Origin: an uncultured bacterium | Lineage (GTDB): Bacteria > Hydrothermota > UBA3073 > NMUJ01 > CBEVQO01 | DNA length: 64,000 bases | Reading direction: 5' to 3' | Assembly: GCA_965552055.1 (NCBI GenBank) | Contig: CBEVQO010000008.1 | Coordinates: 32,915 to 96,914, forward strand | Shown: positions 237 to 56,540 of the stretch, one piece after another | Layout: the number at the start of each line of letters is the position of its first letter | How positions within the stretch are numbered: position 1 is the stretch's first letter | Program-made: the position numbers and the translations under genes | Notes under the pieces: model-generated | Told to the model about the DNA's origin: nothing | Databases searched by the model: none | What the model saw: the letters and a program-made list of their open reading frames with translations, nothing else

Positions 237-263
237 TTGACAAATAAAGAAATCCATTAAAAT
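237..263 (+). promoter_or_regulatory. sigma70-like promoter, leaderless start
   Basis: TTGACA(237-242)-15 bp-TAAAAT(258-263); ATG 6 nt downstream, no SD. Confidence 0.7.
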
Positions 264-269
264 AAAAAG

Positions 270-929
270 ATGAATGCTGAAGAAAAATTCTGGGAAGCAT
301 TAAAGAGATTATCGGAAGAAATAAACAAATTGCGAGAAGCACAAAAGAAAACAGATGAGCAATTAAGAAAAACAGACAAAGAAATAGATAAATTGCGAGA
401 ATCTCAAAAAAAGACGGATAAGCAATTAAAAGAGACAGATAAAGGTATGAAAGAATTACAAAAGCTCATCAAAGATTTATCTGACAATGTTGGTGGTCTC
501 AATCGCTCATTTGGCAAGATACCGGAAGCCCTAAGTGAACCACAGGTTGAAGAAAAATTTGAAGAAGCAGGGTTTGAAGTGCTTGGTGCCTATCCCAATA
601 TCTGGGGAAAATACAATGGCAAGAAAAAAGAAATCGACCTTTTGATAAAGGCAAGACGAAATGGCAAACCTTATATCATCGTAGTGGAAACTCAGGTGCA
701 ATTCAAATCGCGCAAAGAAATAGATGATTTTATCGAATTTTTAAAGGAAGATTTCAGGAAATATTTCGATGAATATGCAAAAATGAAGGTAATAGGTTGC
801 GTATGCGCACTTAAATTCAGCAGAGGAGTTGACGAACACGCCATAAATAGAGGTTTATACTGTATGAAACCAGTAAAAGGCATAATGGGGCTGATAAATC
901 CCAGAAACTTCAAACCCAAAGAATTCTAA
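270..929 (+). CDS. Coiled-coil heptad-repeat protein with C-terminal PD-(D/E)XK-like domain (DUF3782-like)
   Basis: KLRE(A/S)QKKTD repeats followed by EIDLL...IVVETQ. Confidence 0.7.
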   Translation: MNAEEKFWEALKRLSEEINKLREAQKKTDEQLRKTDKEIDKLRESQKKTDKQLKETDKGMKELQKLIKDLSDNVGGLNRSFGKIPEALSEPQVEEKFEEAGFEVLGAYPNIWGKYNGKKKEIDLLIKARRNGKPYIIVVETQVQFKSRKEIDDFIEFLKEDFRKYFDEYAKMKVIGCVCALKFSRGVDEHAINRGLYCMKPVKGIMGLINPRNFKPKEF

Positions 930-945
930 TTAATAAAATTTTTTC

Positions 946-972
946 TTGACGCACTCATATCATCATTATAAT
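946..972 (+). promoter_or_regulatory. sigma70-like promoter for the leader and the 1138 lipoprotein
   Basis: TTGACG(946-951)-15 bp-TATAAT(967-972). Confidence 0.65.
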
Positions 973-1003
973 TTCATGTGAACAATCAAATCTATACATT
1001 GAA

Positions 1004-1018
1004 CTCTCTCTCTCTCTC
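1004..1018 (+). repeat. (CT)7C microsatellite in the 5' leader
   Basis: ctctctctctctctc seen directly. Confidence 0.95.
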
Positions 1019-1137
1019 GTAGAGGTATATTTTCACAAAATCACCCTGTAAGCATTTTAAAAGTAAGACCGCCTCCTAATTGGCATCTTTATTATGCTTT
1101 GGTAAGTGCTCTTTGAGTAGTTTAAAAGGAGGGGGAG

Positions 1138-3717
1138 ATGAGAAAGTATGCAATTTTAATTTTAACCGGATTAATTTTAATTGTAGGATGTAAGAAAAAA
1201 GTTAAACACATAGGTGTGGAATATGACGAAGAAACTGGCGAAATATATGTACCTGATGCTACTATCATAGTAAACGGAAACACTTATAACGAAAGAGCAA
1301 CAATGTCAGACACTGGGCTAGCATTGATAATCACCGCAGACTCAAATTATTATTTCTATTCGCCAAAATTGGGAGATATAGATTCTCTTAATTTATTGAA
1401 CTCTCGTAAAGCAATAGTTAAGTATCTTGAAGGAATTCTTGGGCACGCTAAATCAGAGGAAAGAGTAGGAATAGAAATTACACAGGTGAATGATAATGAA
1501 TATGAATTTAAAAACAAATTGTTTAGATGGGCAGGGATAAAGCAAACAAGTATAAATAAAATAGTTTTAATTCGTCCGAAGAAGCTGTTTGATATTGATT
1601 TAATAAATACTCTAACGGGGAATTGGAGTGATGCAGTCATCGTGTGGCATTCTTATAGCGACACTCTGCAGGCTAATTCGACTGACACCTTCCACCTTGT
1701 CGGTGAATTCTCAATGGGTATCTTTGGCGGAGGTTTCATAGAAGCAGTATTAGAAGAAATCCAGCAAACTCTTTATAAAGACCAATTGCAAAAAGCGTAT
1801 AAAAATTGCAAAGATTTAGTTGTCAAAGTTCAGACAATGGGTGCCCTGAACAGCATTTTTGTAATAGTAAGAGCAGTAGCAGGAGCGTTGGGCACACAGC
1901 AAGTATTAGCACCAGCTGTAGAATCAGGGATAAATATCATAACATCAATTGTAGAAACAGGAGTAGAAAAAGCAATAACTCAGCAAAATGATGAAGAAAT
2001 GGTTCATACATTGAGTAACGATGTCCTAAAAGCAGTAGTCAATTATTTAATAGACGCAGTCAGTAAAAAAGAACAAAAATTTGTCTTGACAGCAGTAGTA
2101 ATATTAATATTAAAAGCAATAGCATTAGCGCTACCGGTTATAGAAGAAACTATCGGAAGTATACAAGCGACTTTTGCAGGAATATATGACACATTTAATG
2201 TCAGTATTGCTTTAAATAACCCACCAGATGCACCTGTAGTTTCGGGTCCTGATAGTGCACAGGTAAATGAGAGCGTAACTTTCACAGCAAGTGCAACAGA
2301 CCCTGATGAAGACAATGTAGCAATAAGATTTTCATGGGGTGATGGAGACACTTCTTCCTGGAGCTCTTATGTATCATCAGGACAATCAATATCAATGAGC
2401 CATACTTACACATCCACAGGCACTTACTATGTAAAAGCACAGGCAAAGGACATTAATGGTGCAATATCCGACTGGTCATCAACACATAAAATTGTAATAT
2501 ATTCAGGGCAAACAGAACAAATAACATGGACAAAAACTTATGGCGGAAGCGATGATGATTGGGGCTGTTCAGTTCAGCAGACACAGGATGGTGGATACAT
2601 AATTGCAGGTGGAACTTGGTCTTTCGGTGCAGGTGGGTATGATGTTTATCTCATAAAGACAGATGCTAATGGTAATGTTGAATGGACAAAAACTTATGGA
2701 GGAAGCTCTTATGATTGTGGCTTTTCAGTTCAGCAGACAAAGGATGGTGGCTTCATAATTGCAGGATACACCTGTTCTTTCGGTGCAGGTTATGCTGATG
2801 TTTATCTCATAAAGACAGATGCTTATGGTAATGTTGAATGGACTAAAACTTATGGCGGAAGCGATTATGATTTTGGCTATTCAGTTCAGCAGACACAGGA
2901 TGGTGGATACATAATTGCAGGCAAAACTTGCTCTTTCGGTGCAGGTGGATATGATGTTTATCTCATAAAGACAGATGCCAACGGTAATGTTGAATGGACA
3001 AAAACTTACGGAGGAGGCAGTGATGATTGTGGCTTTTCAGCTCAGCAAGCACAGGATGGTGGCTTCATAATTGCAGGTGGAACTTGGTCTTTCGGTGCAG
3101 GTGGGTATGATGTTTATCTCATAAAGACAGATGCTAATGGTAATGTTGAATGGACAAAAACTTATGGAGGAAGCTCTTATGATTGTGGCTTTTCAGTTCA
3201 GCAGACAAAGGATGGTGGCTTCATAATTGCAGGATACACCTGTTCTTTCGGTGCAGGTTATGCTGATGTTTATCTCATAAAGACAGATGCTTATGGTAAT
3301 GTTGAATGGACTAAAACTTATGGCGGAAGCTCTTATGATTATGGCAAGTCAGTTCAGCAGACACAGGATGGTGGTTTCATAATTGCAGGATACACCTGTT
3401 CTTTCGGTGCAGGTGGTGCTGATGTTTATCTCATAAAGACAGATGCAAACGGAAATGTTGAATGGACAAAAACTTATGGCGGAAGCGATGAGGATTATGG
3501 GTTTTCGGTTCAGCAGACACAGGATGACGGTTACATAATTGCAGGACGCACTTACTCTTTCGGTGCAGGTGGAGAGGATGTTTATCTCATAAAGACAGAT
3601 GCTAATGGTAATGTATCTTCAAAGATTTCTCTAAAAGTAGGGCATCAAAATGGTGTAAAACCCATTCGATGGAATCATCCACCTATGAAATTTAGGAAAT
3701 TAAGGAGTATGCACTGA
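1138..3717 (+). CDS. Surface lipoprotein: N-terminal unknown domain, PKD-like domain, 7 x 52-aa beta-propeller repeats
   Basis: Lipobox LIVGC; WGDG PKD motif; repeat WTKTYGGSxxDxGxSVQQTxDGGxIIAGxTxSFGAGxxDVYLIKTDAxGNVE; SD AGGAGGGGG. Confidence 0.85.
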   Translation: MRKYAILILTGLILIVGCKKKVKHIGVEYDEETGEIYVPDATIIVNGNTYNERATMSDTGLALIITADSNYYFYSPKLGDIDSLNLLNSRKAIVKYLEGILGHAKSEERVGIEITQVNDNEYEFKNKLFRWAGIKQTSINKIVLIRPKKLFDIDLINTLTGNWSDAVIVWHSYSDTLQANSTDTFHLVGEFSMGIFGGGFIEAVLEEIQQTLYKDQLQKAYKNCKDLVVKVQTMGALNSIFVIVRAVAGALGTQQVLAPAVESGINIITSIVETGVEKAITQQNDEEMVHTLSNDVLKAVVNYLIDAVSKKEQKFVLTAVVILILKAIALALPVIEETIGSIQATFAGIYDTFNVSIALNNPPDAPVVSGPDSAQVNESVTFTASATDPDEDNVAIRFSWGDGDTSSWSSYVSSGQSISMSHTYTSTGTYYVKAQAKDINGAISDWSSTHKIVIYSGQTEQITWTKTYGGSDDDWGCSVQQTQDGGYIIAGGTWSFGAGGYDVYLIKTDANGNVEWTKTYGGSSYDCGFSVQQTKDGGFIIAGYTCSFGAGYADVYLIKTDAYGNVEWTKTYGGSDYDFGYSVQQTQDGGYIIAGKTCSFGAGGYDVYLIKTDANGNVEWTKTYGGGSDDCGFSAQQAQDGGFIIAGGTWSFGAGGYDVYLIKTDANGNVEWTKTYGGSSYDCGFSVQQTKDGGFIIAGYTCSFGAGYADVYLIKTDAYGNVEWTKTYGGSSYDYGKSVQQTQDGGFIIAGYTCSFGAGGADVYLIKTDANGNVEWTKTYGGSDEDYGFSVQQTQDDGYIIAGRTYSFGAGGEDVYLIKTDANGNVSSKISLKVGHQNGVKPIRWNHPPMKFRKLRSMH
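2527..3614 (+). repeat. Seven tandem 156-bp coding repeats
   Basis: Units start at 2527, 2683, 2839, 2995, 3151, 3307, 3463. Confidence 0.95.
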
Positions 3718-3866
3718 AAATTAAAATCCATAGCAGAGGATATGACAAGCCGAGGTCTATGCAGCATGTGATGATTGTCATGTCGACAAATTTGAGTGGA
3801 CAGGCAAAAGAATGTACCAGAAGACTTCTAAGTGAGAAAATAGAAAAATTATAAAAGGAGGACAAA

Positions 3867-4457
3867 ATGAAAAATTCTTTCCCAAATTCCCACTGGATAA
3901 TATTTTTCATGGCGTTTATCTCGTTCTTAATATTATTATTTTCCAAAAAGCCTGCGAAAGAAGAGATAAGACACTACTTTTTAAATTTCCTTATGGCTAT
4001 CTCAGCAGCAACATTAACTGGAAGTATTGTAATTTACTTTGCAGGAGATGAAATAAAAGACAGAATTGACGCTGTTATAAATTCATTTGAGATACAAATT
4101 AAAAAAGTGAACTATTCTTTACAATCTTTAAATAATTTACTAAATACAAATATAGCAAAAGTGAAATGTGTGCAACGCCAGTTAACAAAATTAAATAAAA
4201 AGTTCGCATTGCACAGTGAAAGCGTGCTTACAACTGTGAAAAGGTTGCACACCAGTGTAGATAAATTAATTTTGACCTGTGAGCGAAACGACTCTTTGCG
4301 AAAAGAATTACATACGCTAATAGATTCACTTAAAAATTGGAATTATAGTCTCAACACCAAATTGGACACTTTTCAACATATTTTTAAGCTCATTTATAAA
4401 AAGGAAAAAGAAAAAAAAGCAAGAAGGAGAAGAAAAAATGAGAGCAAAAAGAAGTAA
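3867..4457 (+). CDS. Hypothetical membrane protein (2 TM helices plus coiled coil)
   Basis: SD AAGGAGG; two hydrophobic segments, then heptads. Confidence 0.6.
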   Translation: MKNSFPNSHWIIFFMAFISFLILLFSKKPAKEEIRHYFLNFLMAISAATLTGSIVIYFAGDEIKDRIDAVINSFEIQIKKVNYSLQSLNNLLNTNIAKVKCVQRQLTKLNKKFALHSESVLTTVKRLHTSVDKLILTCERNDSLRKELHTLIDSLKNWNYSLNTKLDTFQHIFKLIYKKEKEKKARRRRKNESKKK

Positions 4458-4524
4458 TTATCTCTTGGAAGTTTACGGCGAATAAGAATTAATTGACATA
4501 AATCGAAAATCAGATATAATATAG

Positions 4525-5202
4525 GTGGTTTGTGCGATTCATCAGCCACAGTATCTGCCCTATCTCGGCTATTTCCATAAGATGATGAATTGCGATGTTT
4601 TCGTCCTGCTCGATGATGTGCAATTTAAGAAGAATGAATGGCAGAATCGCAACAGAATAAAAACTGCAACTGGATGGCAATGGATAACCGTACCTGTTAT
4701 ACATAATTTCGGACAAAAAATAATCGATGTTAAAATCAACAATAGAGTAAACTGGAGAAGAAAACACATGAATGCACTGATAGCAAACTATTCAAAAGCA
4801 CCATATTTCAAAAAATACAGGGACTTTTTCGAAGAAACCTATCAGAAAGAATGGGAGTATTTATGCGATATAAACATACATTTCATTTTGTTTATCGCAA
4901 AAGAGTTAGAAATAGAAGTCCCGATAATAAGGTCTTCGACACTAGGTGTAACTTCAACCAGAACCCAGCGCCTAATAGATATATGCAAAAAAGTAGGTGC
5001 AGATACTTATTTATCGGGAATAGGTGGCTACTACTATCTTGATTTTTCACTTTTTGAACAGAAAGGCATAAAATTAATCTTTCAGGATTTCAAACATCCA
5101 GTTTATCCCCAGTTATACGGCGAATTTATACCAAATTTATCTGTTGTGGATGCACTTTTCAACTGCGGTAAAGATTTAAGAAAATTTTTAATGCGAGCGT
5201 GA
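4525..5202 (+). CDS. WbqC-family protein
   Basis: AIHQPQYLPYLGYFHK...DDVQF...WQNRNRIK...YLSG...LSVVDALFN; TTGACA-16-TATAAT just upstream. Confidence 0.9.
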   Translation: MVCAIHQPQYLPYLGYFHKMMNCDVFVLLDDVQFKKNEWQNRNRIKTATGWQWITVPVIHNFGQKIIDVKINNRVNWRRKHMNALIANYSKAPYFKKYRDFFEETYQKEWEYLCDINIHFILFIAKELEIEVPIIRSSTLGVTSTRTQRLIDICKKVGADTYLSGIGGYYYLDFSLFEQKGIKLIFQDFKHPVYPQLYGEFIPNLSVVDALFNCGKDLRKFLMRA

Positions 5203-5291
5203 GCGAGCCAATTACATATGGGTTGTAGGTCAACACCCCGACTGAAAGAGGGGTGTGCAAGAGGGCGGTGGGGACTGGGAGGAGGGGCTAA
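5186..5291 (+). repeat. Dispersed repeat, copy B (supplies the wbqC stop codon)
   Basis: TTTTAATGCGAGCGTGAGCGAGCCAATTACATATGGGTTGTAGG...GGTGGGGACTGGGAGGAGGGGCTAA; internal hairpin ACACCCC...GGGGTGT. Confidence 0.8.
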
Positions 5292-5336
5292 AAATTATGA
5301 AAACTTGACACTAAAATATTTTGATTAAATTAAAAG

Positions 5337-5717
5337 ATGGAAAGGTCAAAGGACTGGCTTCGTCAGGCAGAAAAAGATTTAGAACATGCTTTACATTCAA
5401 TTGAAGCAAAAGATTATGAATGGGCTTGTTTTTCGGCTCAGCAATCAGCAGAAAAAGCAATAAAAGCAGTATATCAGAAAAATCACATCGAAGCTTTTGG
5501 ACATTCAATTACAAAACTTCTTGAGAATTTAAAAGAAAAGCCTTCTGATGAAATAATAGAATGTGCTAAAATTCTGGATAAATTTTATATTCCAACAAGG
5601 TATCCAAATAGTTTTGATACAGGTGCACCCTGTGATTATTTTACTGAAAAAGAAGCAAAGGAAGCAATAAAGTGTGCAGAGAAAATAATTCGTTTTTGCA
5701 AAGAATTACTCAAATGA
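5337..5717 (+). CDS. HEPN-domain protein
   Basis: WLRQAEKDL...YEWACFSAQQSAEKAIKA...GHSI...LDKFYIPTRYP. Confidence 0.9.
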   Translation: MERSKDWLRQAEKDLEHALHSIEAKDYEWACFSAQQSAEKAIKAVYQKNHIEAFGHSITKLLENLKEKPSDEIIECAKILDKFYIPTRYPNSFDTGAPCDYFTEKEAKEAIKCAEKIIRFCKELLK

Positions 5718-6061
5718 TGAAAATTTATAAGTTTGATGAAGAAAAAGTTGAGAAAGCGATAGAAGAATTTATTAGGAAACTGTCAAAAGATGCGAATGTT
5801 TTAAAAATTGTAATTTTTGGCTCTTTTGTGAGAGGCGATTATGCTCCTGGAAGCGATGTTGACTTTTTGATAATTTTAAGAAATTCCGATAAAAAATTTA
5901 TCGACAGGATACCAGATTTTATTCCCCAAAATTTCCCTGTTGATGTAGATGTTTTCCCTTACACATTGGAAGAGATTGAAAAAATGAAAAAATCGGGCAA
6001 CACCTTTATAAAAAGAATTTTCAAAGAAGGCAAAGTTTTATTTGAAAGAGAAATCACCTGA
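5714..6061 (+). CDS. MNT (minimal nucleotidyltransferase) antitoxin-like protein
   Basis: IFGSFVRGD...SDVDFLI; ATGA overlap with the HEPN stop. Confidence 0.9.
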   Translation: MMKIYKFDEEKVEKAIEEFIRKLSKDANVLKIVIFGSFVRGDYAPGSDVDFLIILRNSDKKFIDRIPDFIPQNFPVDVDVFPYTLEEIEKMKKSGNTFIKRIFKEGKVLFEREIT

Positions 6062-6104
6062 AGGGTTTATGCTTGACATTTCCTTATTTATCATAAAATA
6101 TAAG

Positions 6105-9854: not shown

Positions 9855-10165
9855 ATGATTTACTTATATATTAACTATCCGGAGCCACATTTTACAATAC
9901 ATACGAATACATGTTGTGAAGAGATACGAAAACGACAAAAATCGGGCCAGCGCATTCTAAAAATAGGTCATCATAATTTAGCCATTGAATTGCTGAAATT
10001 TGACCAAGAGTACCAATTCGAGTCGACGCCGCCTAAAATGATATGTGGGTCGAGATAGATTTAGGAAACACTACTCAAGAAATATGTATTTCGCTTGCTA
10101 TTAAACATCTATTAGCACAACGAGTTGAGCGTTTTCGAAAAGCTGAAATAAAAATTCATTGTTGA
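9855..10165 (+). pseudogene. Small hypothetical gene with a frameshift near 10035
   Basis: SD AAGGAGG; one extra A in CCTAAAATG would continue as NDMWVEIDLG...KIHC* to 10165. Confidence 0.55.
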
Positions 10166-10198
10166 CAATCCGGTAATTACTTTAAAATTGAGAGAAAA

Positions 10199-11654: not shown

Positions 11655-11719
11655 TTCAATTATAATTAACATTTTTAATTTGTCAACTTGACATTTGGGG
11701 ATTTTGACTAAAAACAGAG

Positions 11720-12145
11720 ATGGAGATAATTCTTGTGAGTGCGTGTATTATGGGATTGAAGACAAGGTATGATGGTGAGGAATCAAAAGTAAAGTTTAAT
11801 CCGCCTGCTGATTGCATTCCCATCCCGATTTGTCCAGAGCAGATGGGAGGACTGCCTACTCCCCGTCCAAAGATGACCCTGCTAAACAGAGCAGAAGAAA
11901 TTTTGAAAGGCAAAGGTAAAGCGATAAATACAGAAGGAAAAGATGTAACCCAAAATTTAATAAGAGGAGCAGAAGAAGTTTTGAAAATAGCAAAGATGTT
12001 AAACATTAAAAAAGCGATTTTGAAAGACGGAAGTCCTTCGTGCGGTGTCATGCATACAAATATAAATTGGGAAAGAGTCAAAGGAAAAGGCATCACAGCA
12101 TTACTCCTTGAAAAAAACGGAATAAAAATAGAAACTATTGGTTGA
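11720..12145 (+). CDS. DUF523 family protein (2-thiouracil desulfurase TudS-like)
   Basis: ILVSAC..G...RYDG, PICPEQMGGLPTPR, LKDGSPSCG. Confidence 0.9.
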   Translation: MEIILVSACIMGLKTRYDGEESKVKFNPPADCIPIPICPEQMGGLPTPRPKMTLLNRAEEILKGKGKAINTEGKDVTQNLIRGAEEVLKIAKMLNIKKAILKDGSPSCGVMHTNINWERVKGKGITALLLEKNGIKIETIG

Positions 12146-12174
12146 CAAAGGAAAAACTTCGTTAAAATAATATT

Positions 12175-15173: not shown

Positions 15174-15202
15174 CTTACTATTTTAATTACTTTATGGAAA
15201 AG

Positions 15203-15815
15203 TCAATCTTTTTCTTCTTTTTCAATAATTTTTAAAATTTTTTCTTTAAGAACGGGAATTTCTTCTTTTACTATTTGCCATATTTTTTCGTAATCAATGT
15301 CATTATATTTTTTCCAATCCACTTCCGGATAATTATTGCGAAATTCCGAAGGTAATCTTTTTACTGCTTCGCCAATTATTTCCAGACATCTTTCAACAGC
15401 TCTTTTATATCGCCAATCTGAGTAAAACTCATCTTCTGTGATTTCTTGTAAGATTGAAATCAAATTTTCTGCTTCTTCTACTATTTGTTTTAAATATAAA
15501 ATACACCTCTCTTTCATGCTGACCTCCTTTTCGAGGATTAATCTACGCTTATCGGGATTCATTTTCTGAACTTCTTTCCATGTTAATAAGTCAATCTTAG
15601 TTTTAAATAAATCCTCGAGAAAAGTATAAAGTGCGAGCCAATTTTTATAATTTTCTTTATCTTCCTCAAATACTGCGATTAAATCTATATCACTTGCAGA
15701 GCTTTGCTTACCCTTTGCATAAGAGCCAAATAAAATAAATTTTTTGACGCCCAATTTTTTCCATTCTTTTTCGTTTTCTTTTAACTTTCTCATTATTTCT
15801 TTTTTTGGTCAGCAT
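15203..15815 (-). pseudogene. Degenerate MNT plus HepT/DUF86 fusion
   Basis: LFGS...SDIDL; AVERCLEIIGEAVK; RxxxxH motif missing; upstream ATG 15815 out of frame by one base in an A7 run. Confidence 0.7.
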
Positions 15816-19983: not shown

Positions 19984-20049
19984 AATCCCTCCTGACTTTT
20001 ATTATAACCCAATATTATCATTGTCAAGTGATAAAAAATTTTTTAATAA

Positions 20050-24919: not shown

Positions 24920-24961
24920 CTTCATATTTTATTCTAAAAAGAAAAAAGTCAAGCAAATAAT

Positions 24962-26049: not shown

Positions 26050-27125
26050 AAATAATATCTGTAATCGGAGCAAGACCACAGTTTATAAAACTAGCACCAA
26101 TTTATAAAGAGATTAAAAAATATGATAAAATAGAACATAAAGTTTTGCATACAGGTCAGCATTACGATTTTAATATGTCTGACATTTTCTTTTTTGAACT
26201 GGATTTAAAGGCAGATTATAATCTTGGGATAGGTTCTGGCACTCATTCTGAGCAAACAGGCAGGATGCTTATAGAAATAGAGAAAGTTTTGATGGAAGAA
26301 AAGCCCGACCTTGTAATGGTTTATGGTGATACGAATTCCACGCTCGCAGGAGCTCTTGCAGCCGCAAAACTGCATATACCCGTGGCACATGTAGAAGCAG
26401 GGGTCAGAAGTTTTAATATGAAAATGCCAGAAGAAATAAATAGATTACTTACAGACAGAATCTCAAAAATTTTATTTTGCCCCACAAAAACAGCGGTAAA
26501 AAATCTGAAAAAAGAAGGTCATAAAAGGGGAATTCATTTTGTAGGTGATGTGATGCTCGATATACTTTTGAACTCGAAAAATAAAATCGAAGAAAAATAT
26601 AAAGAAGTGCTTCAAAAATTCAAATTAGAGGAAAAAAATTTTTGTGTCGCTACGATACATCGTCAGGAAAATACAGATGATAAGAATAGATTAAAAGAAA
26701 TTTTTTCCGCATTATCAGAAATTGGTAAAAAAATAAAAGTTTTGATTCCTTTGCATCCAAGGACAAAAAAGAGATTAAAAGAATTCAATTTGAATCCCCA
26801 AAATATTGAAATAATTGAACCTGTATCTTATTTTGAAATGTTGTGCCTGCAAAAGGGAGCAAAAATTGTTCTCACGGATTCCGGTGGAATGCAAAAAGAG
26901 TCCGCATTCTTAAAAACTCCATGCTTAACATTGAGAGAAGAAACAGAATGGATAGAAACCATAACATCGGGATGGAACATCCTCGCAGGAAAAATAAAAA
27001 AAGAAGTAATCCTGGAGAAATTTGAAAAAATATTAATCTCAAAATCTAAAAAGGAAATTTACAAACAATTTGGTGCAGGCAAAGCAACAAAAAATATCGT
27101 TAAAATTTTAAATTCTTTTGCTTGA
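26046..27125 (+). CDS. wecB: UDP-N-acetylglucosamine 2-epimerase (non-hydrolysing)
   Basis: GARPQFIK, HTGQHYD, GDTNSTLAG, HVEAG.RS, TDSGG.QKE. Confidence 0.93.
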   Translation: MKIISVIGARPQFIKLAPIYKEIKKYDKIEHKVLHTGQHYDFNMSDIFFFELDLKADYNLGIGSGTHSEQTGRMLIEIEKVLMEEKPDLVMVYGDTNSTLAGALAAAKLHIPVAHVEAGVRSFNMKMPEEINRLLTDRISKILFCPTKTAVKNLKKEGHKRGIHFVGDVMLDILLNSKNKIEEKYKEVLQKFKLEEKNFCVATIHRQENTDDKNRLKEIFSALSEIGKKIKVLIPLHPRTKKRLKEFNLNPQNIEIIEPVSYFEMLCLQKGAKIVLTDSGGMQKESAFLKTPCLTLREETEWIETITSGWNILAGKIKKEVILEKFEKILISKSKKEIYKQFGAGKATKNIVKILNSFA

Positions 27126-27153
27126 CTTTTTAGGGGATACGATAAAATAAATT

Positions 27154-31711: not shown

Positions 31712-31723
31712 CAATTATTATAA

Positions 31724-33118
31724 TCATCCCGGAGATTTGTCAACAGAAAATAAAAATACTTCAATGCAGGGAAATTCATATTTCCCGAGTAACTTAAAAT
31801 CCTTTCTTAATATCTCAAAGTATTTATGTTTCGTTTTCCAGTTATGTGATAAAATTAACCAGATTCTATTGTAATTTTTCAGTTCATCTTTTATTTTTTG
31901 ATAAAATTCTTCCGGATTTTCCGATGACAATCCTATTCTTCTGCATCTTCCCCTGTAGTAAAAATCAAAAGGCATCCGCATATATCCTGCATCAAAAAGT
32001 AAAATGTCTTTTTCCTTTGCTTTTTCTTCCATAAAGTGTGCAAATTTACGCCAATCTTCCTCGGGATAAATCCATCTTTTATAAATCGAAATCAAATTCA
32101 GAAAAATGATAAATGCAACCAAAATGTTACGATGATTTCCTTTGAATTGAGATAATCCTTCGCAAAAAAGATAAAAGAAAACAGGATAAAGCCATAGCAA
32201 ATATTTCGGATGATGCATAACCCTATACAACTTGAAACTCAAAAGAAAAGTAAAAATCAAAGATAAAAGAAGACAATATCCCATAAATTTCCCTTTCCAG
32301 TTTTTCTTAAATCCACGATATAAAATGAATACATTTAAAAGGAACAAAATTAAAAGAGGAAATGCTTTTGCAAAACACTTTGCATCGCTTATACCTTTTA
32401 CCTTTATCAGATATTCTCCGAAGCAGAAAACATGAATAAAATAAGGAATAACTGCACCTGTGGAAAGATGAAAACTCGCTACCTCCTTGCGATGGGATAA
32501 TTGCTCTTTAAAAAGAAAAAACAAAGGCAAAATAAGTATAAAAACGAAAAGATAGGACAAAATATAAAATTTAAATGGTGATCGGGATTTCCTTTTGAAA
32601 ATTAAATAAAGGAAAAATAAAACAATAAGCAAAACAGAAGATAGATAAAAATTGTAAAGAGAAAGGACAGAAAAAATGACAAAAAATATAAAATTCCTAA
32701 AATTGTTTTCTTCGAATGTTTTTATGAAGAAATAAATTAACGCTGAAGAAAAGAGGATAACGAGTGGATACATACGCGCTTCTATTCCCCATTCCCACAG
32801 ATAAGCGCTGAAACAGCATATCAGCAGCGAATACCAGCTCTTATGCAGCTTAAATAGAAAAATAATGGATAAAAGTCCGGATATTAAAAATATAAATCTT
32901 ATTCCAATTTCGGACTTTGAAATATCAAAAATTTTATGCAGGAAATAATGCAAAGGAGGATGTGCATCGTATTTTACTTCCTGTAATATCTGTGCAAAAC
33001 TTTTTTGTCCTACATAAAAGGCAAATACTTCATCCAAGTCAAGAGGTCTGTGAATAGCGAAAATAACCCGCAGTAATAAGGCGATAATTATTAATGGAAA
33101 AAATTTTTTATTCTGCAC
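31724..33118 (-). CDS. GT-C (PMT/ArnT-like, family 39) membrane glycosyltransferase
   Basis: LDLDE, DAHPPLHY, EARMY; many TM helices. Confidence 0.8.
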   Translation of the reverse strand: MQNKKFFPLIIIALLLRVIFAIHRPLDLDEVFAFYVGQKSFAQILQEVKYDAHPPLHYFLHKIFDISKSEIGIRFIFLISGLLSIIFLFKLHKSWYSLLICCFSAYLWEWGIEARMYPLVILFSSALIYFFIKTFEENNFRNFIFFVIFSVLSLYNFYLSSVLLIVLFFLYLIFKRKSRSPFKFYILSYLFVFILILPLFFLFKEQLSHRKEVASFHLSTGAVIPYFIHVFCFGEYLIKVKGISDAKCFAKAFPLLILFLLNVFILYRGFKKNWKGKFMGYCLLLSLIFTFLLSFKLYRVMHHPKYLLWLYPVFFYLFCEGLSQFKGNHRNILVAFIIFLNLISIYKRWIYPEEDWRKFAHFMEEKAKEKDILLFDAGYMRMPFDFYYRGRCRRIGLSSENPEEFYQKIKDELKNYNRIWLILSHNWKTKHKYFEILRKDFKLLGKYEFPCIEVFLFSVDKSPG

Positions 33119-34124: not shown

Positions 34125-34232
34125 TTCGCCCTCCTTAAATTATGTTAAGGAATTTATCAAAATGTCAAGTGTAAAATGAAAAAATATAAAAAGAGTATGC
34201 TTGACAATTTCTAAAATCTGATAACATTTTAT

Positions 34233-42558: not shown

Positions 42559-42639
42559 ACTTTCCCGAAATTTTTCCGAAATATTAAATGCATGCTTGAC
42601 AAAGCTGTAATAAGATTAAAATATAAAGAAGGAGGGAGT

Positions 42640-46720: not shown

Positions 46721-46763
46721 TTTTCACTTGACAAATAAAAATTTTGAATATATTTCCCGCAAG

Positions 46764-49738: not shown

Positions 49739-49745
49739 CTTATTA

Positions 49746-50978
49746 TTAATGCTTGCCTATTATTACGATTTCAGCGGGATCAGACCAATCCGAACTCGCT
49801 TCGTACTTATCTTTCGCCTGCGCCTGTATCATAAAACTACCGGAACTCGTATAAATGTGACTCATATAAACTGTATCACCACTCGCTATCCATTTACTCC
49901 AGTTAGAAGTATTCCCGTCTCCCCAAGAAAATCTTATACTTATGCTATCACCGTTTGGATCTACTGTCGTCGTCCAGAATGTTACTTCCACATTAATTTG
50001 CGCTGTATCTGGACCTACAGGCTTCTGTGGCATCTCTGGTGCATAATTCACTTCTATTAAAATCGAAGCAGATTGAGACCATTCACCTTCTAAGCCATAA
50101 TGGTCTTTTGCTTTAACTTTCACATAATAAACACCTGATTTCGAAAAACTATGTAATACCGAAACTGTATCACCACTTTCTACCCAGTTCGACCAGACAC
50201 TATGTCCATCTCCGAAATCAAAAAGTAGTTTTACGAAATTATTTTCCGGATCTTCGGCAGATGATTTTATTTCAACTATCTCATTTACCTTGGCTTTTGA
50301 TGGCAAAATAGGCTTCATTGGTTTTTCGGGTGGATATTCAATTAATATCTCACAGGGGTCTGACCATTCTGACATCTCACCTGCAGGGTCTCTGGCTTGG
50401 GCTCTCACTTCAAATTCACCTGCGATTTCATATTTATGACTCATAGAAATCAGCGACCCGGAAGGATAAAAACTGCTCCATAAAGATGTATCCCCGTCCC
50501 CCCAATCAAATCGCACACAAACACTATCTCTATCAGGGTCACTAACATAAGTTGAGAATGTAACAAATGAACCCACAGCATAGACACTATCTGAACTTAC
50601 AGGTTTGTCAGGAGGATATGGAGAAGTATTTGGTTGCACCCTTATTTTTGTGCTGTCTGACCAGGCTGACTCTTTACCATATATATCCTTTGCCTGTGCT
50701 CTCAGATAAAATATTCCAGTGTCTTTATAAATGTGACTGAAAGTTATATGAGTATCGCTTGCAAAGTAAGAGCTCCAGTCCGATATGCTTCCATCACCCC
50801 ATGATACCCTTGCACAAACCATATCACCATCAGGGTCAGAAACATAAACCTCAAAAAGAGCTTCCTTTGCTATCTGTATTTTATCAGTTAAAGGAACAGG
50901 AGCAGATGGCTCTGGAGGATTATTCTTTCTGCAATTTAAAATCAAAGTTACAATTAAAAACAACGCTTTCTTTTTCAT
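49746..50978 (-). CDS. Lipoprotein with 4 PKD-like domains
   Basis: LILNC; repeated DPDGD...WGDG...W.S...SH.Y...G.....A.AKD..G..S.WS. Confidence 0.8.
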   Translation of the reverse strand: MKKKALFLIVTLILNCRKNNPPEPSAPVPLTDKIQIAKEALFEVYVSDPDGDMVCARVSWGDGSISDWSSYFASDTHITFSHIYKDTGIFYLRAQAKDIYGKESAWSDSTKIRVQPNTSPYPPDKPVSSDSVYAVGSFVTFSTYVSDPDRDSVCVRFDWGDGDTSLWSSFYPSGSLISMSHKYEIAGEFEVRAQARDPAGEMSEWSDPCEILIEYPPEKPMKPILPSKAKVNEIVEIKSSAEDPENNFVKLLFDFGDGHSVWSNWVESGDTVSVLHSFSKSGVYYVKVKAKDHYGLEGEWSQSASILIEVNYAPEMPQKPVGPDTAQINVEVTFWTTTVDPNGDSISIRFSWGDGNTSNWSKWIASGDTVYMSHIYTSSGSFMIQAQAKDKYEASSDWSDPAEIVIIGKH

Positions 50979-51913
50979 TTGATAATTATCTTACAAGAGC
51001 CAGACCACTCTGATTTTGCATTAAATTCATCTTTTGCCTGCGCGCGAATATAAAAAGTACCTGCCTCTTTATAAGTATAAGAAACATAAATAATTTCACC
51101 ACTTTCAACAAAATCAGACCAATTAGAAGTATCACCGTTTCCAAAGTCGAACCTTATGCTAACAGGATTGCCATCGGGGTCAGTTGTGGAAGAAGAGATC
51201 ACAATACTTTCACCAATATAAGCACTATCAGGTGCAGAGGGTGTTTCAGGTATTTTCGGCTCCCTATTTACTATTATTTTACGAAAACCTGACCACCCTG
51301 ATTCAAATCCCCATATATCGGATGCTTTTGCCCTTATGTAATATACGCCAGGTTCATTATAAACATGATAAAGAGTCACCAATTCACCACTTTCAACGAA
51401 ATCAGACCAATCAGAAGTATCTCCGTCATCCCACAATATTTTTATGGCTACCTTATCGCCATCGGGGTCTAGCGCCCTTGTTGTTGCTTCCAATCTATCT
51501 CCCGGATTAACCATATCCTGCGCATAAGGTGTCTCAGGAATAGAAGGAGAACGATTTACCCTTATTTCTTCCTGACACCTGTCTTTATAACCATATTCAT
51601 CTTTTGCCTCTATTGTTATTTCATAAATCCCTGCAGTAAAATACTTATAGTAAAATTTTAAAGTTTCACCCGAAGGATTATAGGATGTCCATTCATTACA
51701 ATTTCCATCACCCCAGTCTATTTTAACACTAATACTATCTGTATCGGGGTCAGTAACATAAACCTTTAAAGTAAATAGCTCACCTATACCAACCACATCT
51801 TGCGATAGCTTTGAAGAAATTAAAGGACTATTATTGGCCTTCCAGTCATAATCATCAGTATGATGGCAGCTTACCAAAAATACAAAGAAAATTATGAGAA
51901 ATTTCTTCCTCAT
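50975..51913 (-). CDS. Lipoprotein with 3 PKD-like domains
   Basis: LVSC; same repeat as the adjacent gene. Confidence 0.8.
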   Translation of the reverse strand: MRKKFLIIFFVFLVSCHHTDDYDWKANNSPLISSKLSQDVVGIGELFTLKVYVTDPDTDSISVKIDWGDGNCNEWTSYNPSGETLKFYYKYFTAGIYEITIEAKDEYGYKDRCQEEIRVNRSPSIPETPYAQDMVNPGDRLEATTRALDPDGDKVAIKILWDDGDTSDWSDFVESGELVTLYHVYNEPGVYYIRAKASDIWGFESGWSGFRKIIVNREPKIPETPSAPDSAYIGESIVISSSTTDPDGNPVSIRFDFGNGDTSNWSDFVESGEIIYVSYTYKEAGTFYIRAQAKDEFNAKSEWSGSCKIIIK

Positions 51914-51917
51914 AAAA

Positions 51918-52115
51918 TTAACGCTTCAATTCCTTGATTATCATCTCTGTGCGAATGTCCACAAGTTCTATTAATTTCTTTATCATATCTTGATTCTGCT
52001 TTATCAATTCCTGATTTTGCCTTATATATTTTCCGTTTTGTATCAAAAGCTTTGTTAGTATCACAGACAGGAACGCACCTATCACCGTCCATATTATCTG
52101 GAAAATAATCTGCAT
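51918..52115 (-). CDS. Small single-TM coiled-coil protein
   Basis: SD GAGGGGG; TTGACA-16-TAAAAT upstream. Confidence 0.55.
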   Translation of the reverse strand: MQIIFQIIWTVIGAFLSVILTKLLIQNGKYIRQNQELIKQNQDMIKKLIELVDIRTEMIIKELKR

Positions 52116-52145
52116 CTTGCCCCCTCTTATTTTAACCCATTATCC

Positions 52146-53066
52146 TTATTTGTCAACCTTTTTCTGCATCTCCAGCATCGTCAAAAATGCCTCTATTCGC
52201 GTGCGTAAACCTACTTCGCTCGCATGCTCATCCACAACAACAGGTAAATACGAAACCTTTGATTTCTTTGCTTTGCTCTCTATCAACTGGCTCACCATAG
52301 CATCAGGACCACATTGAAAAGATACTACATAAATCATACCCTGATACTTATCTTCTCTGTCAAGAAAATAATAAGCAGCCCCCAAATTTCTCTCTGCCAT
52401 AGAGTAATAAACGCGCTTATAAACATCACGCGCTTTATACAAACAAAGCTCATAAGGCACATTGTCGGATGTGTGCACCTCTACATCATGCTCCCCCAGT
52501 ATCTCAAACAACTTTAGATTAACATATTTATCATAGACTATGTAAGAACGGGCTACCACTCCTATTCTCAACTTTTTGCCATCAACAAGTTTCGACTTTA
52601 ATCTTTTTTCTTTAAACTTCTTATATTCTTCCATCGCAATCTTTATCGCCTTCTTAATTTTTTTCTTCCCTTTCCCAAGCATTTTACCGAGTTCATAAAG
52701 CCCTGCTTCAAAAGGTTTTTCGCGCACATGAAAAGTAGGTGACAGAATTTGCGGCAAATTATCAAATACCGCTCTTATATAATCAGGAAAGGCAATAAAT
52801 TTGGGACACATCCATTGATATTTGGCAATACTGCGCATGTAAGGAAGCAAAATTGCATCACATTTATCTTTCAACATATAAATATGTCCATAAGCAACTT
52901 TTACAGGATAACAGGTATCCGAATGTGCATATTTCACACCTATCCTTACAATTTCTTTATTTGTTTCGGGTGATAAAACTACATCCTCTCCGAGTTCTCG
53001 CAAAAATACTTCAAAAAGATATCCCCATTCATGATAAAAAAGTGCTCGCGGAAGACCTATCCTCAC
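52146..53066 (-). CDS. Acyl-CoA dehydratase activase-related protein (DUF2229-like)
   Basis: RIGLPRAL, DTCYPVKVAYGH, CPKF...PD, SFQCGPD, DEH....G..TR.EAF. Confidence 0.85.
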   Translation of the reverse strand: MRIGLPRALFYHEWGYLFEVFLRELGEDVVLSPETNKEIVRIGVKYAHSDTCYPVKVAYGHIYMLKDKCDAILLPYMRSIAKYQWMCPKFIAFPDYIRAVFDNLPQILSPTFHVREKPFEAGLYELGKMLGKGKKKIKKAIKIAMEEYKKFKEKRLKSKLVDGKKLRIGVVARSYIVYDKYVNLKLFEILGEHDVEVHTSDNVPYELCLYKARDVYKRVYYSMAERNLGAAYYFLDREDKYQGMIYVVSFQCGPDAMVSQLIESKAKKSKVSYLPVVVDEHASEVGLRTRIEAFLTMLEMQKKVDK

Positions 53067-55600
53067 CTTTTAATTCTCCTGTAATTATGCAAAACCTCTT
53101 TATTTACCTCAAGCAACATTTTTTCTTCCAGCAATTCTTTAATCTCCGGAATATCACACTTCACAATAGCATTAACACATTGCGACTTTATTATGGAACT
53201 TACATCACTTTCAAGCAATTTAAACAAATATTTACAAAGTAACCTTTGATTGTCAACCGAAACAGAATCCATTAACTTTCCGCAAATCCTCACAAGATGA
53301 AAAATCTTTCTTTCATCTTCTTCTTTCTTCAATCTATCTACAACTTCTTTAACCGCATCATCTTTATATCTTTTAACCGCCTCCTCTACTGCTATCCTCA
53401 CGATCAATTTTTTATCAGATAACATATCGAGAATTTCTGGCAATACTTTTTGCGATTTTATCCTGCCAAGTGCAGAAACAGCTATCGTCCTTATCATATC
53501 ATCTTTATCCCTTAAATACGGCAATATTTCCGAAATAAGTGTGGTATCTCCTATTTTGCCAAGGGCACGAAGCACACCCAAACTCTTTTTCTCTTTCAGA
53601 ATCTCCAAAAGTGGCTTTATCGCCTTTTTAGATTTTATCTCACCGAGCAAATAAACAGCATTTCCTTTTATCCATTTATTTTTCGATGACAGCGCCTTTA
53701 TCAAAGAATCCTCAACCAAATCTGGATTTGCTTTTGCATACTCTTTCAATGCTCTCAATGTTGTCCCCCTTTTTGTTCCCAGTTTTTTCTTGAAAAAAGA
53801 AAGGGCTTCCTCTTTCCTTTCTGCAAGCACTTTGCGTGCTAAACGCACTTCTTCCCTCTGCTCCTCAACCCCCCATTTACACGCTATCCTTATCAATTTT
53901 TCAATCGGCATTTTCTCAAAATCTTCTTTCTTTATTTTTTTCTTCTTTTTCTTTATCAAATTTGTATCAAGACCAGCACCTAATGTCCCCTGCACCCATC
54001 TTATATCATCATCTCCTTTGGAATACTTATCCTTGCCACCCAAATCAATAAAAAGAGCAATCCCTCCAAAATCCCTATCTGCACGGGAAAAACCTGTTGC
54101 TCCTTTTTCAACATTCAAATAATAATCTTTGCCCTCTCTATCATACAAAAGACCAAAAGAATTAGCAAGAGACATGCCCTGTCCACCACTAACATAATAG
54201 AAATCATCACCGGATAAATCCATCAATATTCCACACGACAAATCATGACCCTCACCCTGTGAAGGTCCGAATTTTGAAAAATAAACATCATTGCCCGAAG
54301 AATCCACAAGAATACCGCATGATAAATGAATGCCCGCGCCCTGAGCGTATTCAATTGCATTGTAAAAATCAGAACCTCCACCGTCATAAAGGATACCAAG
54401 AGAATACCAGTAAGATGAACCCTGAGCATAAACTTCTGCATTGTAAAAATCATTGCCTTCGAAGTCAAAAAGAATACCTACCCCACCACCGGCATCAGGT
54501 CTTATACCCAGCCCAAATCCCTGTGCAAAGGAGAAATAGTTTTTGGGTAAAAGGGGGGATGCTCTTTGCCTTCCTCCAGCATAGTAAACATCTATCCCTT
54601 TAAAATCACAAAGTAAACCTGCTCCCCATGTGAAACCAAATCCTTCCGAACATTCATTTGCACGATAAACATCATTACCGGAAAAGTCCATAAGCAAACC
54701 CAAACCAAAAGCACCTGCACCAAGAGATAACTGACCTGCACCGTAAAAGTCATTACCAGAAAAATCAAAAAGACCACCAACACCAAAAACACCACAACAA
54801 GATAAAAAAGGCATATCATAAAAATCATCACCACTTAAATCAAAAACAAAAGATATGGAAAAATAACCACGAGAAACAGGAAAACAATACCTGTCATCAC
54901 CACCCAAATCTATAACAAAAGCAAAAGTATCACGATAAACATCAGAACCAAACCCACCTATCGCAAATTTGCCAAATTTTGTATCAAAAATTTTTAACTT
55001 TTCTTTAAAATTTTTAACATCTTCTTCAAAATTTTTAACATTTTCTTTTAAAAATTTAACAAAATCATCAAAAATTTTAATAAGATTTGCACCCGCTATG
55101 AGTATTTTTCTGATATTGACTTTTGATGCATATTTGATAAGGATTGTGTCTTTTTCTTCTTTATCTTTTAAAAAAACTAAATCTGCGAGTATTTCCAATG
55201 ATTCTTTTTCTGAAGGTGTTAATTTTTCGAATGCTTTTTCATACTCTGGATAGATTTTGTTTATTTCCTCTATTAATTTTTTAATATTTTCATCTAAATT
55301 TCCTGCAAATTTTATTTTTCTTTCTGATATTTTGATATCGGGACATAGAATTTTTGCCAGCCATTTATAAGCTTCTACGATTCTCTTTCTGAGTTTTCTT
55401 TTCCCGCTATCTGTCAGTGAAAGCATGAAAAATGGGTCATCAAGTGATTTTGCGACTACAGGAAGCAGAAAAACGGTATCTTTCATCCATTTCCTGTCAT
55501 AAAAAACATCTTCCCTCTCTGCATAAATCACAGAAAATGCTTTATCAAGATATTTTTCAAAAAGAGTATCCCCAAATATCAACATTAAAAATAATGTCAT
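53063..55600 (-). CDS. Exported protein with DxxGxDxY Gly-rich repeats and C-terminal HEAT repeats
   Basis: DLGGDDRY/DFSGNDFY repeats; AVYLLGEIKSKKAI, ALGKIG, ALGRIK. Confidence 0.75.
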   Translation of the reverse strand: MTLFLMLIFGDTLFEKYLDKAFSVIYAEREDVFYDRKWMKDTVFLLPVVAKSLDDPFFMLSLTDSGKRKLRKRIVEAYKWLAKILCPDIKISERKIKFAGNLDENIKKLIEEINKIYPEYEKAFEKLTPSEKESLEILADLVFLKDKEEKDTILIKYASKVNIRKILIAGANLIKIFDDFVKFLKENVKNFEEDVKNFKEKLKIFDTKFGKFAIGGFGSDVYRDTFAFVIDLGGDDRYCFPVSRGYFSISFVFDLSGDDFYDMPFLSCCGVFGVGGLFDFSGNDFYGAGQLSLGAGAFGLGLLMDFSGNDVYRANECSEGFGFTWGAGLLCDFKGIDVYYAGGRQRASPLLPKNYFSFAQGFGLGIRPDAGGGVGILFDFEGNDFYNAEVYAQGSSYWYSLGILYDGGGSDFYNAIEYAQGAGIHLSCGILVDSSGNDVYFSKFGPSQGEGHDLSCGILMDLSGDDFYYVSGGQGMSLANSFGLLYDREGKDYYLNVEKGATGFSRADRDFGGIALFIDLGGKDKYSKGDDDIRWVQGTLGAGLDTNLIKKKKKKIKKEDFEKMPIEKLIRIACKWGVEEQREEVRLARKVLAERKEEALSFFKKKLGTKRGTTLRALKEYAKANPDLVEDSLIKALSSKNKWIKGNAVYLLGEIKSKKAIKPLLEILKEKKSLGVLRALGKIGDTTLISEILPYLRDKDDMIRTIAVSALGRIKSQKVLPEILDMLSDKKLIVRIAVEEAVKRYKDDAVKEVVDRLKKEEDERKIFHLVRICGKLMDSVSVDNQRLLCKYLFKLLESDVSSIIKSQCVNAIVKCDIPEIKELLEEKMLLEVNKEVLHNYRRIKR

Positions 55601-55609
55601 TTTTTAGAT

Positions 55610-55678
55610 TTTAAACCAATTCGGCGATTGTCAACTTTAATTTTTAATTGACAGATAAAAACACTATTTAAAATTTTT
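55610..55678 (+). repeat. Direct repeat, left copy (divergent promoter pair)
   Basis: TTTAAACCAATTCGGCGATTGTCAAC...AATTGACAG...AAAATTTT, also at 56473-56540. Confidence 0.9.
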
Positions 55679-55743
55679 AAAATAAATAAAAATTTTTTGT
55701 TGACAACTCTGATATTTCTCTATAATTTAAAAAAGGGGGGAGT

Positions 55744-56469
55744 ATGAAAAGGTTAATTTGGCTTTGTCTTATTGCAATTGTGGGATGCAGGAAAGGCGAA
55801 ATTGTTCTGGAAGAAGGCTACTTCACAGTAGGCTCAAACAGCACAATGTATTACTGCTTCAAACTAACTAAAGGCACAAAAATCGATGTAGATTTTAGAG
55901 TAACAGCGGGGGACAGCGTAGATGTTTTGCTCTTAAATAAATCGGGTTTCAAAGAGTATCTCGAAATGTTTGAACCTCCTGATACCGTTGATACTAATAT
56001 TTACAAAGAGGAAAACATCACAATAATACCCTACCAGGTTAAAGAAAGTTCTACCCCTGAAGTGGATTCAGGAATTGCACTTAGTTTCATTTTCTTTGCC
56101 TCAGACTCCTGCAAAGTAAAAGTTTATTATACTGTGAATGATAGCATGCTAAACTCATGGTATGATGATACTATTTGTTATAGATGGATAAATCAGAAAA
56201 AGAGTCCCCTAAAAGTGCATATTTACAATGATTCAAAGGATACAATAAATTATAGTTTCTGGCTGAATAAATATCACCTTAATTATAAGCGAAATCAATT
56301 TACTTACGAAGAAGAAGGCACACAATTTAACACTTCTTCTTTCTCTTACGAATTTAAAGCAGCAGAAACGGATTCATTTTATATAGTGATAGATAATCGT
56401 GACATTCCGGTGATTGAGGATGCCATACCAAAGGGCAATGTTACCTACTACATAAAGATTACAAGATAA
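55744..56469 (+). CDS. Lipoprotein, paralog of 60872-61585
   Basis: IVGC lipobox; EGTQF...FSY...YIVIDN...DAIP...IKIT; TTGACA-15-TATAAT at 55700-55726. Confidence 0.75.
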   Translation: MKRLIWLCLIAIVGCRKGEIVLEEGYFTVGSNSTMYYCFKLTKGTKIDVDFRVTAGDSVDVLLLNKSGFKEYLEMFEPPDTVDTNIYKEENITIIPYQVKESSTPEVDSGIALSFIFFASDSCKVKVYYTVNDSMLNSWYDDTICYRWINQKKSPLKVHIYNDSKDTINYSFWLNKYHLNYKRNQFTYEEEGTQFNTSSFSYEFKAAETDSFYIVIDNRDIPVIEDAIPKGNVTYYIKITR

Positions 56470-56472
56470 TCC

Positions 56473-56540
56473 TTTAAACCAATTCGGCGATTGTCAACCT
56501 TAATTTTTAATTGACAGAGATAAAACACCATTAAAATTTT
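56473..56540 (+). repeat. Direct repeat, right copy
   Basis: Matches 55610-55678. Confidence 0.9.

Follow-up and report, generated by a model that had tools for sequence, protein, structure and literature searches.

The 64,000-nucleotide stretch of DNA analysed here (the window) comes from the genome of an uncultured bacterium of the phylum Hydrothermota (contig CBEVQO010000008.1, positions 32,915 to 96,914; G000:C8:32915-96914, where G000 is the genome under study, of 2.23 Mb, 35.6% GC and 97% complete). Many of its genes are preceded by sigma70-type promoter sequences in which the -35 and -10 boxes are separated by 15 bp. All the promoter claims made here are based on sequence, with start codons giving an upper bound on the position of +1 only. 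On this basis, the 15-bp spacing is well supported as a real, strong and genome-wide departure from a near-universal rule, and the sites are very probably functional promoters with a true 15-bp geometry. They form one dominant promoter-like class, likely read by a holoenzyme with a 15-bp optimum, most likely through a divergent RpoD, a reading to which we assign a probability of roughly 0.58.

Holoenzyme architecture is generally taken to dictate a 17-bp spacer. Spacers are described as predominantly 17 bp in 49 species with mapped transcription start sites (PMC12641261) and as 17 bp across taxa (PMC8407463), and a 2026 preprint on 56,742 genomes states that the canonical spacer holds domain-wide, in a survey that admitted only spacers of 16–18 bp (10.64898/2026.09.23.753901). 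No genome-wide 15-bp optimum is described in the titles and abstract openings of the open-access papers that were found, although per-species supplementary spacer tables may bear on this point, and no open-access paper on WOR-3 promoters with sigma factors was found.

An earlier note on this DNA had listed 18 pairs of TTGAC(A/T/G) and TAnnnT boxes with a 15-bp spacer, and in all 18 the boxes are exactly 15 bp apart. Among the 118 TTGAC[ATG] sites of the window, TAnnnT follows at 15 bp in 21 cases, at 16 bp in six and at 17 bp in six, against a mean of 2.9 (maximum 7) at unrelated spacings. The enrichment over this background is strong at 15 bp (p=1.6e-12) and not at 17 bp (p=0.07), and two of the six 17-bp matches (946 and 55700) are overlapping re-readings of 15-bp sites. 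Three further 15-bp matches were absent from that list (9833, 55648 and 57530), and two of them, 9833 and 57530, look like chance matches. Rfam gave no match in the window.

The same spacing dominates the whole genome, where the mode is 15 and not 17. The strict search TTGACA-Nx-TAWAAT returns 12, 253, 47, 17 and 8 sites for x=14, 15, 16, 17 and 18, which places the class outside the canonical 17 ± 1 bp. Half of the strict 17-bp sites (10/20) are re-readings of the 15-bp register. A backwards-read control gives two matches, and single-base variants at the first five -35 positions show no spacing peak. Three anchors that do not presuppose a spacing all give 15. With TTGACA alone, outside long open reading frames (ORFs; n=786), TAnnnT is found at 15 bp in 378 cases and at 16 bp in 57, and the 83 cases at 17 bp include 54 that match at 15 too; inside long ORFs (n=1032) the peak is nearly gone, with 38 TAnnnT at 15 and 36 at 16, and 15 TAWAAT at 15. 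With TAWAAT alone (n=3056), TTGAC lies at 15 bp in 276 cases, at 16 in 46 and at 17 in 14. With TAWAAT-N5-RTG at ORF heads (n=111), ties being assigned to 15, an exact TTGACA stands at 15 bp in 70 cases and a one-mismatch version in 21, with one weak case at 17. A single promoter class is preferred by the Bayesian information criterion (BIC; K=1 43694 vs K=2 43865). Two promoter classes for two sigmas were rejected on this ground; the K=2 split only divides leaderless promoters from those led by a Shine–Dalgarno (SD) sequence.

The consensus opens with an A tract followed by one of T. Next come cTTGACA, a 15-bp spacer whose last part is a T tract with GAT, the TAWAAT box and the start. The -35 hexamer TTGACA is of the sigma70/sigmaA type. 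The -10 hexamer, when not forced by the search, has T in 73% and A in 71% of sites at its first two positions and, given TA, a last T in 79%, in agreement with TAnnnT. The spacer shows reproducible base preferences, and an A/T tract lies upstream of the -35 box. The (T)GAT element stands directly before the -10 box, with G at -15 in 192/379 sites and TG at -16/-15 in 109/379, while the canonical extended -10, TG at -15/-14, is present in just 19/379; relative G009, by comparison, has TG at the canonical -15/-14 in 11/21. The possibility that this G tracks the start site instead of the boxes was discarded, the frequency of G at -15 being the same whether the start lies at 5 nt or at 6-7 nt (p=1.0). 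The class resembles canonical sigma70/sigmaA promoters in both hexamers, the conserved last T of the -10 box, the A/T tract, the T-rich distal spacer and the use at tRNA genes and gene heads, but differs in a modal spacer of 15 rather than 17 and in a G at -15 that replaces TG at -15/-14.

Start codons constrain the register of these boxes. Leaderless-type start codons occur at 5, 6 and 7 nt past the -10 box in 122, 52 and 20 of 379 sites, so that the start codon often lies 5-6 nt past the box, and a second, SD-led group starts 17-18 nt past it; the 18 listed window sites comprise 11 leaderless-type and four SD-led cases. ATG at 5 nt is found in 112/399 sites, 94 of these 112 opening frames of 80+ codons, and in three such proteins (PurE, a GT2 enzyme and one with HEPN) the Pfam domain begins at residue 3-5 of the 5-nt start codon. 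Starts at 2 nt are not a class of their own, since 20/23 are ATG-ATG with the second ATG at 5 nt. The modal distance is 5 nt in G000 and 6 nt in the same-order relative G001. Leaderless-type starts are mostly preceded by G (93/131 at 5 nt; for example, window positions 5337, 6105 and 27154), whereas a pyrimidine is the usual base at -1, and +1 may be either that preceding G or the start codon itself. Leaderless transcription from the start codon has been documented in Deinococcus (PMC4007540, PMC12340547), where the start codons peak at 6-7 nt past the box (PMC12340547), compared with 5 nt in G000.

A 15-bp spacer could also be short in appearance only, as in S. aureus sigmaB promoters, whose spacer is nominally about 14 bp; there, the shortening is reported to be apparent, part of the -10 element being read as duplex, with no -7T pocket (PMC11156646). 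Applied to G000, TA would be read as duplex and the flipped A would be the fourth base of TAWAAT, with the 17-bp geometry kept. Besides that precedent, an A at the fourth base in 77% of sites agrees with this idea, as does the part of the profile that fits 17-bp relatives best when anchored at the -35 box (r=0.53 vs 0.13). However, the usual gap from the -10 box to +1 is 6 nt (PMC8407463), so +1 of a box shifted by 2 bp would fall 3 nt inside the genes with 5-nt starts, and a transcript cannot begin past its own start codon. The start codons found 5 nt past the box at many genes thus argue that the -10 box does not lie 2 bp further downstream, the alternative that the earlier note had raised against itself. 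The last T of the hexamer, at 79% unforced, and the about equal A or T two bases further on point the same way. In this indirect test G000 departs from the sigmaB type, with housekeeping hexamers, a conserved last T and start codons incompatible with a downstream register, and a merely apparent shortening is highly improbable.

The label "housekeeping" given to these promoters is a fair one. The 15-bp class heads tRNA genes and most divergent genes (192/334, compared with 23 for 16 bp and 34 for 17 bp, shadows included), and 15 bp is found in 20/21 of the tRNA/tmRNA genes with any match at 13-19 bp (47 entries in total), the placement at housekeeping and stable-RNA gene heads that is typical of sigma70. 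The 5´ end of the 16S gene was not found in G000 with the primer motif, so the head of the rRNA operon was not located.

The comparison with relatives, which are kin and not independent samples, covered 30 genomes searched at 15, 16 and 17 bp only. The modal spacer is 17 in 14 of them, 16 in 11 (G006, G012, G014, G018, G020, G021, G023, G024, G027, G029 and G030) and weakly 15 in three (G002, G003 and G004), with a 15/16 tie in two (G001 and G008). Family f4 peaks sharply at 17 (146-265 sites at 17; for example, 3/5/265 at 15/16/17), whereas a relative with a 16-bp mode has 4/94/42. The search therefore recovers 17 where 17 is the mode, and the 11/30 relatives at 16 rather than 17 show that spacer length is labile across the phylum. 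Among 272 genomes of the phylum, TTGACW-N15-TAWAAT occurs 283 times in G000 and no more than 18 times in any other, a strict pattern that under-counts the same-order genus, with its T-rich -10 box, and that could likewise miss other lineages with different boxes. This genus is represented by G001, G002 and G003 (99, 87 and 66% complete), and 390 kb of the 1.4-Mb genome of G001 gave 26/10/2 at 15/16/17. The rpoC tree does not resolve the relation of G000 to the genus, so 15 need not have a single origin. A search for viruses with this promoter form yielded 57 contigs with one match each and no lead.

Promoter style also varies among these genomes. The base before TTGAC is C in 56% of G000 sites, in 91% and 79% in RpoD-bearing relatives of the class and in 12% in the same-order genus, which lacks a detectable RpoD (see below); the -10 box is T-rich in this genus and TAWAAT, as in G000, in the RpoD-bearing class relatives tested. 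Relatives with 17-bp spacers (n=64) and those with 16-bp spacers (n=14) alike have the boundary between T tract and purines at -17/-16; in G000 it lies at -16/-15, and G027 has no such profile. These small samples suggest that, in going from 16 to 15, the spacer lost a base pair beside the -10 box and not beside the -35 box.

Five sigma70-family genes were identified in G000. Apart from RpoD (575 aa), they encode a 272-aa sigma that lacks region 1.1, two small sigmas and one that is FliA-like and lies next to flagellar genes. Taken as an internal yardstick for the core geometry, FliA promoters show no spacing peak for GCCGATA-type boxes, and the lone flagellin site is ambiguous between 14 and 15. 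RpoD is an intact gene behind dnaG (G000:C7:57373-59097; L002:490-2217), and Pfam detects regions 1.1, 1.2, 2, 3 and 4, the layout of a group 1 sigma. Two tandem region-1.1-like domains are apparent in the model, at residues of about 1-52 and 67-117, with a basic linker between them. Its homologues are distant (29-48% identity, with none between 100% and 48% among the 120 matches listed); a metagenome scan recovered one identical copy and a genome scan distant matches only. The AlphaFold model and a fold search give an ordinary sigma70 and are silent on domain spacing in the holoenzyme.

The divergence of this protein is concentrated. In a comparison of 94 conserved columns across 25 relatives (G030 left out), RpoD deviates at 20, compared with 13, 10, 7, 7 and 0-4 in the relatives. 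The changes cluster in regions 2.4-3.0 (8/16 vs 12/79, p=0.0045, for a region picked after inspection of the changes) and include the equivalents of E. coli T440, R441 and E458 (offset of 41 to E. coli sigma70), residues that have been linked to position -12 and to the G at -14 in the extended -10 element (PMC2613000). The earlier note had pointed to regions 3-4 of sigmaA and to the beta flap as places to look for indels. A one-residue deletion is indeed present in the sigma3 helix, besides a short insertion in region 3.2, but region 4 carries only conservative changes, with the -35 recognition helix and the melting residues intact, and no indel was found in the flap.

RpoD is probably the reader of the 15-bp promoters. 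It is favoured because its -35 recognition helix is intact, as are the residues for melting, because its changes cluster where the promoter changed, because the short 272-aa sigma of G000 is unremarkable and because the promoter style fits the RpoD-bearing class relatives tested and not the RpoD-less genus. Through such an RpoD, TAWAAT would be read in the normal -12 to -7 register, transcription would start at or before the start codon and the first T of TTGACA would lie some 32 nt, not 35, ahead of +1. The sigma4/beta-flap module, which is known to be flexible, would absorb the first missing base pair, as it would in relatives with 16 bp, and the second would be absorbed in the extended -10 zone, where a remodelled 2.4-3.0 surface may read G at -15 instead of TG at -15/-14. 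Rotation of sigma4 and the flap with spacer length has been described (PMC10216364), as have short, 16-bp spacers read by the primary sigma at E. coli rRNA and tRNA promoters (PMC9303308, PMC10216364). In E. coli, however, the 16-bp promoters are a suboptimal minority, whereas in G000 15 bp is the genome-wide norm and 17 bp is nearly absent.

Several observations weigh against RpoD as the determinant. No RpoD match was found in any of the three genomes of the same-order genus (G001-G003; 99, 87 and 66% complete), which also peaks at 15, so a 15-bp optimum can exist without the changes in RpoD. In G000, RpoD scores 284.8 bits against TIGR02393, under the 354-bit cut-off, and its branch is about three times longer than that of rpoC (1.27 vs 0.42, in a quick version of the RpoD tree), both of which would fit a decaying gene too; three of four relatives' RpoD likewise fall under the cut-off (relatives 318-361 bits, those below it 318-350). 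The C before TTGAC is found in only 18-26% of sites in G027, an RpoD-bearing relative from the phylum, which weakens the argument from promoter style, and the short sigma is also without the equivalent of E458. Finally, this is one evolutionary event, from which correlation cannot show cause.

The same observations lend some weight to the idea that the short 272-aa sigma became the housekeeping sigma of the order and reads 15 bp, with RpoD decaying here and lost in the sister genus. In that genus, the only sigmas found are the short one, in a syntenic position, and one of 175 aa, and dnaG is directly followed by an unrelated gene in 2/2 loci; unless RpoD was missed, the short sigma must read the 15-bp promoters there. 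In G000, RpoD is fast-evolving, and the short sigma, encoded between htrA and an M23 peptidase gene and 47% identical to a homologue annotated "candidate division WOR-3", belongs to an htrA-sigma operon that has a 15-bp promoter itself. A comparable case is that of Bacteroidota, where a short primary sigma without region 1.1 replaced RpoD and where the promoter boxes differ. G000 resembles this case in having a short RpoD-like sigma, the only such sigma found in its sister genus, but has canonical boxes and still keeps RpoD. Moreover, a short-sigma match is present in most relatives, strict 17-bp ones included; the local copy shows ordinary divergence, differing at 4/39 conserved columns (18/26 sequences aligned), and its region 2.4 still has the pattern seen in relatives with RpoD; and the promoter style of G000 is unlike that of the RpoD-less genus. 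Region 4 and the melting residues of RpoD are conserved, and the rpoC tree does not place G000 and the genus as sisters. A takeover by the short sigma is a tentative alternative, clearly less probable than reading through RpoD.

The core enzyme could instead set the length, through a beta-flap/zipper geometry shifted across the order, so that any sigma would read 15, which is compatible with RpoD as the reader. Two lineages with apparently different readers are both at 15, and a contribution of the core is probable if 15 bp is indeed read by different sigmas within a single order. Core sequences were extracted for 19/28 rpoB, 25 rpoC and 17/21 rpoA. G000 and the sister genus share K to R near the flap (K in 15/15 others) and E to D in the beta' zipper (E in 21/21 others), and G000 alone (1/25) has YK for YR in the zipper, at a residue reported to contact the spacer (PMC3173786). 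However, G000 shows no indels in the flap, the zipper, the zinc-binding domain or the DNA-binding residues of the alpha C-terminal domain, and the changes that it shares with the genus, being conservative, may be no more than ordinary markers of the lineage; the core is an unlikely explanation. The insertion that follows the flap in beta (rpoB, L086-L113) is long in family f4, which is strictly 17-bp, and in three phylum relatives, and some 50 residues shorter in G000, in the sister genus and in three class families with 16 bp; it was rejected as the cause, its length not separating 15 from 16. In the RpoD-less genus rpoB and rpoC are not adjacent (G001:C18/C31; G002:C62/C115; G003:C68/C48), and G005 has two rpoB copies (C13 and C30) with identical match scores, possibly an assembly duplicate.

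An accessory DNA- or polymerase-binding factor, acting at almost every promoter to reshape the spacer or shift sigma4, could account for the spacer base preferences and the upstream A/T tract. These preferences are weak and similar to those of 16- and 17-bp relatives, and CarD was not found in G000, only Mfd, in a search that did not extend to other accessory factors. Activator-dependent promoters typically have boxes that are not near consensus, whereas both boxes are near consensus here, and such a factor is quite improbable.

DNA topology offers a last explanation, in which reverse gyrase would keep the DNA relaxed or positively supercoiled and thereby select short spacers with an ordinary polymerase. 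Within the class, G000 and the sister genus have reverse gyrase while none was found in the 18 remaining members, and relaxed DNA is reported to favour short spacers in E. coli (PMC9303308). Yet the enzyme occurs in 48/272 genomes of the phylum, among them G026, with its mode at 17, and G029, with its mode at 16, none of the others exceeding 18 of the 15-bp sites, and a GyrA/ParC-family gene is present in G000 as well. Reverse gyrase is not sufficient and at most a contributing factor; that it explains the spacing by itself is hardly credible.

The individual window promoters illustrate the class. On the forward strand, leaderless-type starts follow the sites at 237..263 (ATG 270, 6 nt past the -10 box), 5305..5331 (ATG 5337 at 5 nt, with a HEPN domain from residue 5), 6073..6099 (ATG 6105 at 5 nt, with a PurE (AIR carboxylase) domain from residue 3), 12142..12168 (GTG 12175 at 6 nt; AAA ATPase), 27122..27148 (GTG 27154 at 5 nt, with a GT2 domain from residue 5), 34201..34227 (GTG 34233 at 5 nt) and 56511..56537 (GTG 56543 at 5 nt). 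The distances are longer at 10162..10188 (ATG 10199 at 10 nt) and 46728..46754 (ATG 46764 at 9 nt; SLT transglycosylase), and 42596..42622 and 55700..55726 precede SD-led ATG codons at 17 nt (42640 and 55744, respectively). The site at 946..972, with TTGACG, has no start codon within 25 nt, the next ORF beginning at 1138, and the previously unlisted site at 55648..55674 lies in tandem, upstream of 55700.

On the reverse strand, close starts are found at 15180..15206 (ATG 15173 at 6 nt; YjeF / NAD(P)H-hydrate repair enzyme), 24926..24952 (ATG 24919 at 6 nt; penicillin-binding protein), 31717..31743 (ATG 31711 at 5 nt) and 55608..55634 (ATG 55600 at 7 nt), and SD-led ATG codons at 17 nt follow 20001..20027 (ATG 19983; Fe-S oxidoreductase) and 34142..34168 (ATG 34124), the latter back to back with the 34201 promoter. 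The minor 16-bp form of the same promoter is represented by 4493..4520 on the forward strand (GTG 4525 at 4 nt) and, on the reverse strand, by 11659..11686 (GTG at 4 nt) and 52129..52156. The -35 boxes of divergent promoters lie 32 bp apart at 34168/34201 (34142-34227) and 13 bp apart at 55634/55648 (55608-55726). Elsewhere in the genome, a GC-rich intergenic repeat is found upstream of genes (G000:C1 36175, C2 155121, C4 186873 and others).

All seven A/T homopolymer runs of at least 10 nt in G000 fall within promoter spacers (G000:C2 1691, 2684, 17571 and 30502, reverse strand; C4 232457, forward strand; C12 1385 and 10392, reverse strand). These poly-T spacers measure 13, 16, 16, 16, 17, 17 and 17 bp, none of them 15, while homopolymer runs in the 283 sites of the strict 15-bp search do not exceed 8 nt. 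A similar promoter whose T tract is interrupted (C1 354087) has a 15-bp spacer. The four downstream ORFs that were read (4/4) start with hydrophobic signal-like stretches. The seven promoters may be phase-variable, by slipped-strand change around the 15-bp optimum.

New in this analysis are the start-codon anchor, the phylum survey, the mapping of RpoD and the seven poly-T-spacer promoters. It is probable that the length gauge of this polymerase was re-tuned from 17 to a true 15 bp with textbook boxes kept, through a 17/16/15 series within one class, together with a remodelled sigma 2.4-3.0 or two sigmas converging, and that poly-T slippage around the new optimum may switch genes for exported proteins. 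A primary polymerase that has a 15-bp optimum but the usual boxes, and whose relatives are at 16 and 17, would make the determinant of spacer length testable by swaps of subunits or domains. If true, it would constitute a partly orthogonal polymerase–promoter pair, which should hinder the expression of incoming foreign DNA with 17-bp promoters. Promoter finders restricted to 16-18 bp miss whole genomes of this kind, and G000 offers a natural system in which to test how promoter length is determined.

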